Below are positions 11,328 through 19,961 of a stretch of 20,000 nt of DNA, piece by piece. A program made the translations under genes and the position numbers. Source of the DNA: an uncultured virus (IMG/VR IMGVR_UViG_3300047564_002075) (taxonomy: Duplodnaviria; Heunggongvirae; Uroviricota; Caudoviricetes); the IMG/VR virus record IMGVR_UViG_3300047564_002075. One strand, 5' to 3'. Numbering within the stretch: position 1 is the stretch's first letter; every line of letters begins with the position of its first letter. The notes under the pieces are model-generated. The model worked only from the letters and a program-made list of their open reading frames with translations, did no database searches and was not told where the DNA came from.

Positions 11328-11345
11328 TATTTATTTTTATAAATA
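11328..11345. promoter_or_regulatory. Back-to-back late promoters
   Basis: AATAAATA on - (11328-11335) and perfect TATAAATA on + (11338-11345). The + site points into the inserted operon. Confidence 0.75.
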
Positions 11346-11350
11346 AACGT

Positions 11351-11582
11351 GGAGGAGAAATCCTTCAGTTAGAGATCAAGATGTATTACTAAAAGATTCC
11401 AGTAATGGCTCTTTCATTAATGCTTCAACTCTAATTGAATTACGATTCAATTTGAAATAGTAATAATCCCAGACGATTCACTCGTGTCGTCTGTGGCACC
11501 GATTCGTCTGGCATTATGTCAGGGACGGATTGGATCGTTTTCTCCTCTCCAAACAACATTCTTTTCCTTAAGGAGAAAACAA
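11351..11582 (+). ncRNA. Putative structured 5' leader (cis-regulatory RNA) of the + strand operon
   Basis: Pairings read directly: 11352-60/11539-47, 11364-74/11429-39, 11433-40/11445-52 (UACG loop), 11463-76/11504-17, and 11537-46/11571-80 (covers the RBS). Confidence 0.55.
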
Positions 11583-12377
11583 ATGGCAGATCAAGTTTAT
11601 GTTCCAGATCCATGGTCAATGCTCGCAGGACAGCATTCAGACATTCGTAGAGAAGGTTCTGTAGAGCGTGGCGAGATTCGTTACGACGTTGCTACTCGTG
11701 CCGCTGACAACCGTTATGCTAACGCTGTTGGTCAAGGCGAAATCAAGTATGCTATCGCTGAACATTCCGAATCAACCAACCGTGACATTCTAACCACTGG
11801 TTTTAATACTTCAGTCAAGGTAGATGAAGCTGCTGATAAGATTCAGCAAAGAGCTGCTGACTTCTATATTGCTTCTCAAGCAAGAGATTTTGATAACTCT
11901 CGTGACCTTGCTGCTCTCAGAGCATCTCAAGACCTTGCAGCTCAGAAACTCAGCACAGAGATTCTTCTTGCTACCGAGAAGACTGCTACTGCTCAGGCTC
12001 TTGAGTCAGCAAGACTTGGTGCTGCTGTAGCACTCGGACAATCACAGATCAGCAAGGAAATTGCTGAGAGCAAGTATGACCTCAGCAAGCAGGTTGCTTA
12101 TGAGAATGAGAAGACTCGTGATCTCATCAATTCACTCAAGAATGATGAACTCAATAGACTTCTCATTGAGCGCAACACTGATATCAATAGCCTCCGTGGA
12201 GATTATTGGGGTGTTAGAGATGGTCTGTTCAACAGCCAATTCGCTGCACTATCTTCACAAGTTAACTCTCAGTTAAACTCACTTAACAGTCAGATTGCTG
12301 AGACCCGTCAGGGCATGGTTAACTTCGGAACCATGGCTGGTGTAGGTCAGTCTTCAACCAGCAACGCTGTACGCTGA
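11583..12377 (+). CDS. 264-aa Ala/Ser/Gln-rich coiled-coil protein with 11-residue repeats and an N/Q/S-rich C-terminal motif; function unknown
   Basis: AAGGAG RBS before ATG 11583 (the ORF-track GTG start lies in the leader). Hendecad periodicity visible. No Cys and no evident signal peptide. Confidence 0.85.
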   Translation: MADQVYVPDPWSMLAGQHSDIRREGSVERGEIRYDVATRAADNRYANAVGQGEIKYAIAEHSESTNRDILTTGFNTSVKVDEAADKIQQRAADFYIASQARDFDNSRDLAALRASQDLAAQKLSTEILLATEKTATAQALESARLGAAVALGQSQISKEIAESKYDLSKQVAYENEKTRDLINSLKNDELNRLLIERNTDINSLRGDYWGVRDGLFNSQFAALSSQVNSQLNSLNSQIAETRQGMVNFGTMAGVGQSSTSNAVR

Positions 12378-12395
12378 TTTAGTTCAGTAGTTATT

Positions 12396-12419
12396 AAGGG
12401 GGAGATGACTCCCCCTTTT
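12396..12419 (+). terminator. Internal hairpin with short U-tract (probably a leaky terminator or stabiliser)
   Basis: AAGGGGGAG-ATGA-CTCCCCCTT with only four Ts in total. The GAGGAG RBS of the next gene follows. Confidence 0.7.
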
Positions 12420-12433
12420 AGAGGAGAATAACT

Positions 12434-13006
12434 ATGGACTCAGCAGAAAGAAGACTCATTGATTTATATAATCTTCTCGCACAGTATCAGAGAAGTAATG
12501 ACCCGAATCTAATGGAAAACATTCAGTCTGTTCGTGCCGAAATTACACAGATGCTGAATGCCCGTGCTGGTGGAAACGATAACATCAACATCGTCATAGA
12601 CGGTGGCGAGTGCCCAGATGAGTGTCCCCCAGGACCGCCTGGACCTCCAGGAGAACAAGGGCCACCAGGGCCGCAGGGCCCACCAGGAGAACCAGGAGAA
12701 TGCACCTGCAGGTGCAAAAGCATCCTGGTTTCTGAAGATTATACTGCTACTTGCGATGATTACTACATCGGTGTCAATAGTGACGGACCTGTTACTATTA
12801 CATTACCTGAAGACTGCACCGACTGTTGTGAGATTATCGTGAAAGCAGAAATGGGTCCACCATTGGGCAACAGAAAAATTACAGTCACTACATCAAACGC
12901 TGCTTTGATTGATGGTGAAGGTGATTACATTATCACCACACCATATGGAGCAGTCAACTTGATTTGTCGTGGACTTGATTGGTATATTATCTCAACAAAA
13001 CTATGA
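12434..13006 (+). CDS. Cys-flanked short collagen-like protein with a phage-fibre-type C-terminal beta domain
   Basis: Eight Gly-X-Y triplets between CPDEC and CTCRC, 10 Cys in total. C-terminal DYYIGV...TITLP...IDG...YG...W.II pattern. GAGGAG RBS. Confidence 0.85.
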   Translation: MDSAERRLIDLYNLLAQYQRSNDPNLMENIQSVRAEITQMLNARAGGNDNINIVIDGGECPDECPPGPPGPPGEQGPPGPQGPPGEPGECTCRCKSILVSEDYTATCDDYYIGVNSDGPVTITLPEDCTDCCEIIVKAEMGPPLGNRKITVTTSNAALIDGEGDYIITTPYGAVNLICRGLDWYIISTKL

Positions 13007-13785
13007 ACTTTAATATTAAACCATCTCTACCTGACATAAGAGATCACATTTATAGAAGTGACAGCACAGAAGTTCTCAGGGAATCTGTAGATCTTCGTGA
13101 GTGGGATACAATAGTTGAATCACAATATGATCTGGGCAGTTGTGCTGCAAATGCGCTCACAAATGCATACGAACTGTGCGTGAAACGCAACTACCCAGAA
13201 CATTTTACTCATCTCAGTAGACTGTTTATCTATTATAACACCCGGCTTGAACATGGTGATATTGAAAAAGATACTGGAATGTTTTTAAGAGATGGTCTTA
13301 AATCATTATCAAAGTATGGAGTGTGTTCTGAATTATTATGGCCATATGATCAAGAAAAATTTAATGATACACCATCTGATGAATGCTATGAGGATGCTAA
13401 GAAAAGAAAAATCATTAAGTATGAAAAATTAATTAGCACTTATTATATCACTCAAGTTTTGAATAACAACAAACCAGTTGTATTTGGTATGGAAATTTAC
13501 GAAAGTTTTATGGAACTAAATGATCGTATTTCTACTGTAAGTTTCCCTTCCAGAAAAGAGAAAAGTCTTGGAGGACATGGGATGTGTATGGTCGGATATA
13601 ATTTAAAGGAAAGACTGTTTTTAGCAAAGAATAGTTTTGGTCCTACTTGGGGAAACAACGGTTACTGTTGGATTCCTTTTGATTACATTAATCAGGAAGG
13701 ATACGACATTTGGACTTTTGATATACCCAACCAATTAGGAGAATCAAATGTATTATACGAGGCACTACTACCCATATTATCATAG
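13003..13785 (+). CDS. Papain-family (C1A) cysteine peptidase
   Basis: Q-x3-GSC (QYDLGSC), SRLFIYY, GGH...VGY and KNSFG..WG..GY: oxyanion Gln and Cys/His/Asn triad intact. Start at 13003 overlaps the upstream stop (ATGA). Confidence 0.93.
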   Translation: MNFNIKPSLPDIRDHIYRSDSTEVLRESVDLREWDTIVESQYDLGSCAANALTNAYELCVKRNYPEHFTHLSRLFIYYNTRLEHGDIEKDTGMFLRDGLKSLSKYGVCSELLWPYDQEKFNDTPSDECYEDAKKRKIIKYEKLISTYYITQVLNNNKPVVFGMEIYESFMELNDRISTVSFPSRKEKSLGGHGMCMVGYNLKERLFLAKNSFGPTWGNNGYCWIPFDYINQEGYDIWTFDIPNQLGESNVLYEALLPILS

Positions 13786-13885
13786 GAGATATTATGACTA
13801 CTATGACTATTACCGCTATGGGTGTCATCCTTATTATGATAGATATTGCCCTTATTACTCATATTATCCTTTCTATCCTTACTAA
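13748..13885 (+). CDS. 45-aa tyrosine-rich peptide (22 Tyr) absent from the ORF track
   Basis: MYYTRHYYPYYHRRYYDYYDYYRYGCHPYYDRYCPYYSYYPFYPY. AGGAG RBS at 13737-13741. Mixed TAT/TAC codons argue against a simple DNA repeat. Confidence 0.85.
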   Translation: MYYTRHYYPYYHRRYYDYYDYYRYGCHPYYDRYCPYYSYYPFYPY

Positions 13886-13899
13886 GTAGGAGATTCAAA

Positions 13900-14151
13900 A
13901 TGTATTACCGTTATCAGCCATATCCATACTACAGGAGATACTACAGTTTAGATCCTTATTATTATAGAAGGTACTACAATCCATACTACAATTATCAACA
14001 GAATATAGTTGATAGTCAAGTATCAGACATAGACCAAAGTATTAATAACTTTGGGGATATGACTGATGTGATTCAAGATGCTGATGTTTTTCAAGTAATG
14101 TCACCAGAACCAGAAGAACCTCAAGAACAATCTCGCCTGATTCTACCATAA
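13900..14151 (+). CDS. 83-aa protein: Tyr/Arg/Pro-rich N-terminus, Q/N/D-rich NFGxM motif, acidic tail
   Basis: AGGAG RBS at 13888-13892 supports the start at MYYRYQPYPYYRRYY rather than 13846. Confidence 0.85.
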   Translation: MYYRYQPYPYYRRYYSLDPYYYRRYYNPYYNYQQNIVDSQVSDIDQSINNFGDMTDVIQDADVFQVMSPEPEEPQEQSRLILP

Positions 14152-14186
14152 TAAAAAAGAGTGGCACTAGACCACTCTTTCTTTTT
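14152..14186. terminator. Bidirectional intrinsic terminator closing the + operon
   Basis: AAAGAGTGG (14156-64) / CCACTCTTT (14172-80) with A-run left and T-run right, between convergent genes. Confidence 0.85.
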
Positions 14187-17594: not shown

Positions 17595-17628
17595 TATTTA
17601 TAATACCACACCCTTGATCTGGTGTCAA
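17595..17628 (-). promoter_or_regulatory. Overlapping early (sigma70) and late promoters of psbA
   Basis: TTGACA(17628-23)-N17-TATTAT(17605-00) overlapping TATAAATA (17602-17595). Confidence 0.85.
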
Positions 17629-18937: not shown

Positions 18938-19819
18938 TCAGAACTTGAAACCAAGACCAGTGGTGAACACAGGCGAATAGGTTCCGTTAGAAGCACCATA
19001 GCTGTTAGCAGCATTGGTGGTAGGGAACTTCAGATCAGCGAAACCAACGAGAGAGTTGGTGATGCGACCTTCCACACCAAGAGCAAGAACAACTTGACCA
19101 CGATTTCCTACAGCAGACTGGTAGTTTGCTTGAGTATCATTGGTGAAAGGAACTTGATAACCAACACCAGTATAGATGTTAGCACGACTTACACCAGAAG
19201 CAGCACGGGAGATACTCCAATCATAAGAAACAAGAGCACCACCAGCAGTACCGATATTGCTGTTAGGACCAGCAACTGCATTCAGGTAAGGACGGAGAGA
19301 AACAGCATTCTGATTGCTGAAGTTCTTTACAGCATAACGTGCTTGAAGAGTAGCACCAGAGATGGTGCGGTCAGAGGTATAACCACCACCATTAACACCT
19401 TGCTTGTTTAGAAGAACACCAAGACCGAGATAGTTACCAACGCCTTGTGCTTTCTGAGCGGCAGCAACTTCAAGAGCAGTTACACGGGTGTTTGTAGCAG
19501 AAAGTTCCTTAGCAAATTCTGCACGAAGAGCAGCAGCGAGTTGTGCATCTGCAGCAGTTTGGAACTCAGCAATACGATCAAGACAAGCGTTAGTCAGAGC
19601 AGCCAGTTCGGCACGAGTGGCAGGTTGACCAGGCTGGAAAGTACCGTTTGGATAACCAGCAACACAACCATAACGAGAAATTAGGTTGGAGATTGCCTGA
19701 TAGGACCACTCAGTAGGTTGAACATCACGCAGTTGCGAAACACTGGTGACTTGTGCCATAGCGGGGGCAGCAATAGAAGCTGCAGCAACACCAGCGGCAA
19801 TAAACGAACGAATCATCAT
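18938..19819 (-). CDS. SLH-domain outer-membrane protein (cyanobacterial porin-type N-terminus plus short beta-barrel)
   Basis: Signal peptide ending APAMA, then QVTSVSQL.DVQPT.W.YQA..NL..RYGCVAGYP.GTF...TR.E.AA..NACLD, a coiled coil, amphipathic beta strands and terminal GLGFKF. Confidence 0.85.
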   Translation of the reverse strand: MMIRSFIAAGVAAASIAAPAMAQVTSVSQLRDVQPTEWSYQAISNLISRYGCVAGYPNGTFQPGQPATRAELAALTNACLDRIAEFQTAADAQLAAALRAEFAKELSATNTRVTALEVAAAQKAQGVGNYLGLGVLLNKQGVNGGGYTSDRTISGATLQARYAVKNFSNQNAVSLRPYLNAVAGPNSNIGTAGGALVSYDWSISRAASGVSRANIYTGVGYQVPFTNDTQANYQSAVGNRGQVVLALGVEGRITNSLVGFADLKFPTTNAANSYGASNGTYSPVFTTGLGFKF

Positions 19820-19878: not shown

Positions 19879-19961
19879 TGTCGGTAAGAGGACTTGAACC
19901 TCCACGTCATAAAGACACTGGAACCTAAACCCAGCGCGTCTACCAATTCCGCCATACCGAC
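19879..19961 (-). tRNA. trnL: tRNA-Leu (anticodon UAG), CCA not encoded
   Basis: GTCGGTA/TACCGAC acceptor stem, D-arm TGGCGGAATTGGTAGACGC, anticodon arm CTGGG-TTTAGGT-TCCAG, long variable arm, T-arm GGTTCAAGTCC. Confidence 0.97.

Follow-up and report, generated by a model that had tools for sequence, protein, structure and literature searches.

The DNA analyzed here (the window) is the 20,000-nucleotide (nt) stretch of IMG/VR record IMGVR_UViG_3300047564_002075, and it is a piece of an uncultured freshwater T4-like cyanomyovirus. Most genes of the window lie on the minus strand, and a block of five genes on the plus strand, open reading frames (ORFs) 1 to 5, runs opposite to its neighbors. 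The subject of this report is a segment of 33 residues, referred to below as the module, one copy of which is found in the first protein of this cassette, ORF1, and the other in the last, ORF5. The genes, the two copies of the module, and the extension that follows the second of them are arranged in the following order:

11583..12377, plus strand: ORF1, first gene, 264 amino acids (aa), a predicted all-helical rod-like protein with 11-residue repeats (from AlphaFold2 and the clustering of lengths)
12276..12374, plus strand: ORF1 copy of the 33-residue module, residues 232–264, at the extreme C terminus
12434..13006, plus strand: ORF2, 190 aa, a collagen-like fiber protein with an N-terminal helix, eight Cys-flanked G-X-Y triplets, and a conserved C-terminal knob
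13003..13785, plus strand: ORF3, 260 aa, a cysteine peptidase of the papain family (C1), assigned with Pfam and PHROG
13748..13885, plus strand: ORF4, 45 aa, 49% tyrosine, without the module, overlapping the last 38 nt of ORF3
13900..14151, plus strand: ORF5, 83 aa, with a Tyr/Arg/Pro-rich N terminus, the module, and an acidic Pro/Glu-rich tail
14002..14100, plus strand: ORF5 copy of the 33-residue module, residues 35–67
14101..14148, plus strand: Pro/Glu-rich extension of ORF5 (SPEPEEPQEQSRLILP) that follows the module

The module shared by ORF1 and ORF5

An earlier, sequence-only reading of this DNA had aligned a peptide of 22 residues near the end of ORF1 with one in ORF5 and had described the two proteins as otherwise unrelated. 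The peptides are residues 235–256 of ORF1 (NSQIAETRQGMVNFGTMAGVGQ, 12285–12350) and residues 38–59 of ORF5 (DSQVSDIDQSINNFGDMTDVIQ, 14011–14076); both positions had been given correctly, the ungapped identity is indeed 9/22, and BLASTP of ORF1 against ORF5 aligns no segment other than this (identity of 11/27, pairwise E-value of 2e-4). The best ungapped BLOSUM62 score of a 22-mer, 46, was reached by 0/5000 shuffles of ORF5 and by 1/5000 shuffles of ORF1, and it ranks third among the 561 pairs of proteins encoded in the window, after psbA/psbD, which are true homologues, and after the Tyr-rich pair ORF4/ORF5. Comparison of the ORF1 family (30 sequences) with the ORF5 family (26 sequences) by hhalign pairs residues 232–264 of ORF1 with residues 35–67 of ORF5 in 33 columns, with a probability of 94.4% and an E-value of 9.4e-8. 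The 22-residue match is the core of a homologous 33-residue module.

The same relationship is found in both directions with hidden Markov models (HMMs), which were searched against 8,619 stop-to-stop frames from the window and from 53 IMG/VR loci (L001–L053) retrieved with ORF1 by tblastn. A model built from the ORF1 modules only recovers 35 of the 36 ORF5-type frames with E-values between 9e-7 and 0.015, the 36th having an E-value of 1.1 and the next other frame one of 7.8. A model built from the ORF5 modules only recovers 52 of the 53 ORF1-type frames, with E-values between 1e-10 and 1e-4; the 53rd, which carries a two-residue insertion, is found at 0.086, and the next other frame at 0.21.

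Residues Q12, N16, G18, V23, and Q25 of the module are invariant in both families, and S5 and M20 are conserved in at least 90% of the 38 sequences aligned. In ORF1, residues T241, R242, Q243, N247, F248, G249, M251, and Q256 are invariant among 30 sequences that are otherwise 35–86% identical to the protein of the window, and the tail TRQGMVNFGTMAGVGQSST(S/N)N(N/A)VR is nearly constant in relatives with a tblastn identity of 31–45%. The relatives of ORF5 retain the pattern S-Q-[IL]-x4-Q-x-[IM]-x-N-x-G-x-M-x2-V-x-Q-x-[SA]. Followed by HMM across the homologous loci, the motif proposed in the sequence-only reading is conserved in the orthologues of both genes. The codons at these positions are free to vary: among 35 distinct DNA sequences of the ORF1 module, the invariant G18 is encoded by GGT (7), GGA (12), GGG (1), or GGC (15), Q12 by CAA (19) or CAG (16), and S5 by three different codons. 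Since synonymous codons vary at invariant residues, the constraint acts on the protein. The module is homologous in the two proteins, strongly conserved, and under strong selection at the protein level.

A similarity arising by chance or from composition, or else from an element that acts in DNA or RNA, might be suspected from the low sequence complexity around the motif in both proteins and from the pairwise E-value, which is marginal after a scan of the whole window. It is refuted by the cross-family HMMs, the hhalign alignment, the shuffles, and the free variation of codons, and we consider its probability to be negligible.

The 33-residue profile was also searched against 1.84 billion protein representatives, which gave 149 matches at E ≤ 0.001, 148 of them examined. 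Of the 60 proteins with at least 140 aa, 58 are ORF1-type, matching a profile of the ORF1 body as well and carrying the module at the very C terminus, and the remaining two are long repeat proteins with many partial matches of 11 positions, which were taken as false positives. The 88 proteins shorter than 140 aa comprise five fragments of ORF1 and 83 small Tyr/Arg/Pro-rich proteins of 43–129 residues. In the latter the module usually comes after a start rich in Tyr, Arg, Pro, and Gly, and the chain is terminated by a short tail, either basic or aromatic, or by a Pro/Glu-rich extension; a few of these proteins start at the module or just before it and contain little tyrosine. The module is thus restricted to two architectures, with no third one and no attached cellular domain among the 148 matches examined, and in the ESM Atlas only viral clusters without names were matched. 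A decoy mimicking an amyloid of the host was considered and judged unlikely, since the module is on no cellular protein in these two collections.

Among whole phage records, two complete genomes of 250 kb contain exactly two copies of the module each, and a complete genome of 400 kb (G004, rated 100% complete) contains the ORF1 copy only. The ORF5-type module is also absent in 13 of the 49 sources that have at least 3 kb of DNA downstream of ORF1, and the module of ORF1 is unchanged there.

Where both copies are present, they co-vary within genomes. In 15 non-redundant genomes, identity between the modules of ORF1 and ORF5 is 13.1/33 within a genome vs 12.1/33 between genomes, and the within-genome value was reached by 1 of 10,000 permutations, in which the kinship of these 15 related genomes is ignored. 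Individual loci illustrate this trend: in L018 and L020 the tail of ORF1 has moved to the ORF5-type residues S8, D9, S13, D22, and A27, and in L022 and L028 Y15 and a final NQV are common to the two copies.

Structure and relatives of the cassette proteins

No Pfam, PHROG, or NCBIfam family was found for ORF1, ORF4, or ORF5, the Pfam threshold for ORF1 and ORF5 being E ≤ 0.1. ORF1 has 963 relatives at E ≤ 0.001, and all 120 of those listed are unnamed or 'hypothetical'; the lengths in these 120 cluster at 242/243, 253, 264, 275, 286, and 297 aa. A repeat of 11 residues becomes visible when the N-terminal third of ORF1 is set in rows of 11. Taken together, the length steps of 11 and the 11-residue repeat mark ORF1 as a predicted rod with hendecad repeats, and the quantization of the lengths by 11 indicates that whole hendecads have been gained or lost and that the length of the rod differs among phages. 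The AlphaFold2 model of ORF1 (30 sequences) consists of a single helix comprising residues 10–248, with a mean predicted local distance difference test (pLDDT) score of 81. This helix spans the first 17 residues of the module, while the last 16 residues are modeled as coil. By our reading of the sequence, hydrophobic residues of the module keep a spacing of 3–4 (positions 3, 7, 10, 14, and 17), and the four glycines in the twelve residues that come after position 17 make a helix unlikely there. ORF1 most likely forms a parallel coiled coil.

A Foldseek search of the PDB with the ORF1 model gave no match, as expected for a single helix. Sequence searches of the PDB that started from profiles of ORF1 and of the module and from ORF2 returned only non-significant or spurious matches, for example designed armadillo proteins without a passing stretch, and for ORF1 none had an E-value below 0.08. 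ORF1 starts with MADQVYVPDPW, a segment that, read by eye, is without a hydrophobic signal-like stretch.

ORF2 has its eight consecutive G-X-Y triplets between clusters of Cys residues, and the runs are longer in some of its relatives. It scores 21.5 bits against Pfam Collagen, below the cut-off of 27.2, and matches tail collar and tail fiber families of PHROG with a best E-value of 9.9e-8. For a profile of its knob (48 sequences), the best match in the PDB is 9f4a, 'Baseplate wedge tail fiber connector', which is not significant (E-value of 0.11). Wherever a listed locus has enough DNA downstream, ORF1 is followed by ORF2 as the next substantial gene, either directly or with one small unassigned gene in between. 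The single exception is L033, where a Tyr-rich ORF of 57 aa comes first and the contig stops ~550 nt beyond ORF1.

ORF3 matches Pfam Peptidase_C1 over residues 27–224 with an E-value of 1.7e-13 (51.6 bits, cut-off 20.7) and the peptidase family PHROG 16701 with an E-value of 2.5e-13. The contexts of Cys (GSCAAN), His (GGHGM), and Asn (KNSFG) are readable in the sequence, and we take these residues to be the papain triad. In the complete 258-kb genome behind L004 (G006), the peptidase match contains one in-frame TAG. Homologues of ORF4, with 42–69 aa and 36–53% Tyr, are found at the same position in close loci.

ORF5 of the window continues beyond the module, in contrast to divergent ORF5-type proteins, which lack the extension and end with the module or just after it, as ORF1 does. 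Judged from these sequences, the C terminus appears to be the ancestral position of the module. A second, small motif, (V/I/A)-G-(I)-C-T, with a Pro-rich stretch behind it, is present in many ORF5-type C-terminal extensions (for example, in L004:7371-7616, L008:8019-8279, and L022:8053-8331); ORF5 of the window does not have it. The conserved Cys of such extensions, together with the Cys clusters that flank the collagen run of ORF2, gives a hint of disulfide linking. A counter-example to the conservation of the module is found in L015, in which the ORF5 homologue (L015:7832-8122) keeps its Tyr-rich start while the module is decayed. This locus has a shortened peptidase of 196 aa (L015:7145-7735) and an intact ORF1 and ORF2; decay of the cassette may be under way in its downstream half.

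The vicinity of a peptidase raises the question of whether the module is a shared site of recognition or cleavage by this C1A enzyme, which the sequence-only reading had mentioned as an alternative. In the clade of the window the peptidase gene directly precedes the Tyr-rich genes, and in loci with a full-length peptidase the ORF5 extensions longer than 12 residues turn Pro-rich directly after the module in 13/13 distinct cases, many with further Glu or Asp, so that processing at this boundary is plausible for ORF5. This link between extension and peptidase is, however, limited to one clade, and of the seven distinct short forms of ORF5 with the module at the end, four have a peptidase in the locus and three do not. 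ORF1 has nothing beyond the module that could be removed. Its module is unchanged in G004, where no C1 peptidase was found at E ≤ 0.001, and five further records, 15–32% complete, also show none. Sites of papain-type enzymes need far fewer conserved residues than the 33 of the module. We therefore regard a protease site as very unlikely. A cleavage site of the T4 gp21 type (I/L-x-E, present as IAE or LQE in the ORF1 module) was considered separately and rejected, since the aligned residues of ORF5 are often D or N.

Expression and genomic setting

The five genes form one putative late transcription unit, in which a TATAAATA box and an apparently structured leader precede ORF1 and a terminator follows ORF5. 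Its control elements are located as follows:

11338..11345, plus strand: TATAAATA, a T4-type late-promoter-like box upstream of ORF1
11346..11582, plus strand: conserved and apparently structured leader of ~240 nt, from the box to the start of ORF1
12398..12419, plus strand: GC hairpin (GGGGGAG/CTCCCCC) and T-run directly after the ORF1 stop codon, a putative terminator or attenuator
14156..14180, plus strand: terminator-like hairpin closing the cassette, with a stem of nine pairs and then CTTTTTATTC

The TATAAATA sequence is matched four times in the window, vs 0.98 matches expected, each time just upstream of a correctly oriented gene: at 540 (gp48-like gene), 11338 (ORF1), 17595-17602 on the minus strand (psbA), and 19846 (S-layer homology (SLH) gene). 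Of 14 distinct regions upstream of ORF1 in close relatives, nine have retained the box, at about -245 or -310. In an alignment of ten leaders the mean column identity is 68% and several long blocks, GATGTATTACTAAAAGATTC among them, are invariant; this conservation exceeds that of the coding sequence of ORF1. The consensus fold has 66 predicted pairs, with compensatory changes in 14 of them, and no Rfam family reaches its gathering score. The leader may be a cis-regulatory RNA of the cassette.

Of 39 distinct sequences downstream of ORF1, 36 have a stable hairpin (≤ -8 kcal/mol) with a T-rich tail, and the stems differ among them. A terminator at this position would lead to ORF1 being made in large excess of the products of the downstream genes, in support of the view of the sequence-only reading that ORF1 is the major product of the cassette, which it probably is. 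Its description of the module as present in the first and last genes is accurate for the window, but it does not extend to all other loci, as in L038 the ORF5-type gene is the third one.

Many uncultured phages of fresh water, both T4-like and jumbo ones, carry the cassette. Across the loci, ORF1 is accompanied by the collagen-like ORF2, in many cases by another protein that has the ORF2 knob, by the peptidase, and by small Tyr-rich proteins. Cassettes of jumbo phages have a gene for a LuxR/GerE-type helix-turn-helix (HTH) protein directly upstream of ORF1 in 4/4 tested cases (Pfam GerE, E-values of 1e-15 to 4e-17), and such a gene is absent from the window. These putative regulator genes are located at:

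L043:4080-4811, LuxR/GerE-type regulator gene
L039:4057-4734, LuxR/GerE-type regulator gene
L048:3513-4253, LuxR/GerE-type regulator gene
L038:4101-4862, LuxR/GerE-type regulator gene

In a PADLOC search the cassette proteins had no match to a defense family, and the only matches were generic HTH ones from the LuxR-type neighbor. Neither the cassette DNA nor ORF1, ORF2, or ORF5 has a match among cultured phages, where ORF3 matches 13 records, all below 60% identity and none of them within a cassette of this type. Four runs of freshwater metagenomes, from two studies, contain more than half of the words sampled from the window, and no RNA run was listed.

Elsewhere in the window, PHROG and Pfam scans reveal gp48- and gp53-like baseplate proteins, gp32, gp59, and gp33, as well as RNase H, PhoH, ThyX, glutaredoxin, SpeD, psbA, psbD, peroxiredoxin, and a protein with an SLH domain. 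Two features of its distal end are:

18941-19819, minus strand: SLH domain protein, 293 aa, preceded by a TATAAATA box
19879-19961, minus strand: tRNA gene (Rfam, 53.5 bits)

Function of the module and comparison with known systems

The homology of the module in two proteins, its selection at the protein level, its restriction to two architectures, the co-variation of the copies within genomes, and the layout of the operon are established. We propose, from the families and features recognized in the genes, that the cassette is a late-expressed accessory-fiber cassette encoding a rod, a collagen-like fiber, a papain-type peptidase, and Tyr-rich peptides. The reading that we favor, with a probability of about 0.45, is that the module is an assembly tag that joins both of its carriers at the end of the rod in an accessory fiber-like structure. 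ORF1 would provide a helical rod of ~240 residues, with the last 33 residues acting as a distinct end module. The latter would be built of a last heptad-like stretch of helix (S-Q-[ILV]-x4-Q-x-[MIL]-x-N-[FY]) and, after it, of a cap that contains Gly (G-x-M-x2-V-x-Q-x-S-x2-N-x-V-R). The copy in ORF5 would either pair with the copy in ORF1 or replace it at the end of the rod, and in this way a sticky Tyr/Arg-rich segment would be grafted onto a fiber-like structure that also holds the collagen-like, knobbed ORF2. ORF1 would be produced in excess owing to the hairpin terminator. In the clade of the window, the only one to which this step would apply, the acidic Pro/Glu tail may be removed from ORF5 by the papain-type peptidase; such trimming would leave the module at the C terminus, where ORF1 and the short forms of ORF5 also have it.

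Several observations weigh against an assembly tag of this kind. The physical contact between ORF1 and ORF5 is one that we infer, the coiled-coil state and the number of chains in the oligomer are likewise presumed, and a location on the virus particle is deduced from context, no cultured phage carrying ORF1, ORF2, or ORF5. As the module of ORF1 is unchanged in the 13/49 sources and in G004, where an ORF5-type module is absent, its primary role cannot depend on ORF5. The structural models are of low confidence where it matters most, with pLDDT block means of 65, 52, and 43 along the ORF1 module, and the AlphaFold2 model of ORF5 (84 sequences) has no regular secondary structure at a mean pLDDT of 60. 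The co-variation test comprises just 15 related genomes, with shared ancestry uncorrected. In addition, the sharing of codons is slightly higher within genomes than between them (0.51 vs 0.43), which leaves gene conversion as an alternative cause of the co-variation. A prediction, run without controls, of the complex of two copies of ORF1 residues 190–264 with ORF5 residues 28–72 gave no answer (score of 0.00 vs a mark of 0.32) and counts neither for nor against the tag.

The placement of the conserved residues also belongs here. In the register that we assign, Q12, N16, G18, and Q25, invariant in both families, would lie on the outer face of a canonical coiled coil or in the Gly-rich part. 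With this placement, recognition of a third partner or a non-helical fold fits at least as well as the pairing of the two copies. The modules could then be address labels that dock independently on the same third component and never touch each other, with the knob or the N-terminal helix of ORF2 or of its paralogue, or else a protein of the capsid, neck, or baseplate, as candidate receptors. A common receptor would be in keeping with an ORF1 module that is invariant even in phages without an ORF5-type protein, with the presence of ORF2 after ORF1 in nearly every listed locus that extends far enough downstream, and with the outer-face position of the invariants as we read it from the joint alignment. 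A shared receptor that changes would also produce co-variation within genomes. Docking on a receptor would, however, by itself leave unexplained why the module continues the heptad-like pattern of the rod. We consider this reading possible but rather unlikely.

The sequence-only reading had favored an amyloid-like β-arch, in which the modules of both proteins stack in register into a cross-β spine, with ORF1 as the major subunit and the Tyr-rich protein as the nucleator or a minor subunit. Asn, Gly, and Gln are typical of the ladders and arcs of amyloids, and they are prominent among the invariant residues of the module. Stacking in register predicts co-variation at the same positions, and ORF1 is apparently made in excess. 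A motif of ~20–33 residues rich in Gln, Asn, Gly, and Ser, terminal and common to neighboring genes, also recalls the amyloid signaling pairs, which, as outlined in 10.1101/2020.01.06.895854, consist of an N-terminal motif of an NLR and a C-terminal motif of a Bell-domain effector encoded by the adjacent gene. The module, however, is not paired with an NLR, NB-ARC/NACHT, Bell, or HeLo protein, and the 1.84 billion representatives contain two architectures only. No Pfam amyloid or prion family was matched at E ≤ 0.1. Each protein has one full copy of the module, additional stretches detected by HMM being fragments of 5–13 residues, and AlphaFold2 places module residues 1–17 in the long helix of ORF1, with low confidence. 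The role of ORF5 as an obligatory nucleator has to be abandoned, as the 13/49 sources and the complete genome G004 keep the ORF1 module in the absence of an ORF5-type module. Over the module, the AlphaFold2 models of ORF1 and ORF5 speak neither for nor against a β-arch, which is unlikely in our judgment. We give similarly low odds to its wider consequence, that a lytic phage would build part of an accessory fiber or coat by templated cross-β stacking, in which the tails of the rods polymerize and the Tyr/Arg-rich mini-protein seeds or caps them. If true, the two proteins would form a structural amyloid pair encoded by a virus, with no relation to curli, Fap, HET-s, or BASS.

The module is the sole sequence handle that links two undescribed protein families. 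A narrow full-text search found nothing in print on it, and there is no named relative among those listed. As a near-invariant, co-varying tag of 33 residues in two architectures, it offers a precise experimental entry to what the cassette builds. Should it be cross-β, it would represent a new kind of viral structural amyloid.

Comparison with known systems reveals partial likeness to several of them. As in HET-s/NWD2 and BASS, a short motif rich in Gln, Asn, and Gly is found in adjacent, co-oriented genes, sits at the end of one partner or of both, and is attached to proteins that are unrelated in the remainder; the likeness is confined to this genomic arrangement. The cassette differs from these systems in lacking an NLR as well as a pore-forming or Bell/HeLo effector, and in belonging to a late operon of a lytic phage with fiber-type genes; here the motif comes after a predicted helix of 240 residues and matches no known motif family. 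In contrast to curli and Fap (CsgA/CsgB and FapC/FapB), ORF1 and ORF5 each contain a single module with no tandem copies and have no match to the Pfam Curlin repeat, and Pfam, PHROG, and NCBIfam scans reveal no export-type family among the cassette genes.

The spore coat of Bacillus contains the Tyr-rich proteins CotC and CotU and the coat protease YabG. The cassette resembles it in that genes for small proteins very rich in Tyr have as neighbors those for a cysteine protease and for fibrous or collagen-like proteins, a combination suggestive of a matrix that can be cross-linked. The likeness is an analogy only; the setting in a phage is different, and CotC and CotU are not known to have a tail module in common with a rod protein.

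Fibritin of T4 (gp wac) is a long helical rod ending in a C-terminal foldon that governs its assembly. ORF1 is likewise a predicted helical rod of a T4-type phage in which an end module of ~30 residues, at the C terminus, is the most constrained part. It has no sequence similarity to fibritin (no Pfam, PHROG, NCBIfam, or Foldseek match and no significant PDB match), and, while the end module of the ORF1 type is also present on ORF5, a foldon on a second, non-rod protein is not known.

Address tags are known from several systems, among them the N-terminal exosporium-targeting motif of the BclA type, the cargo-loading peptides of encapsulins, the encapsulation peptides of microcompartments, and the capsid-targeting sequence of T4. 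The module differs from them in its sequence, its greater length of 33 residues, and its C-terminal position, and any shell or receptor for it is hypothetical. What it has in common with them, as a functional analogy only, is that one short conserved peptide is carried by otherwise unrelated proteins of one gene cluster, which it would direct to a common assembly. If the module is a peptide for docking or co-assembly, it would constitute a new address-tag system of phages and might be of use for attaching cargo to fibers.

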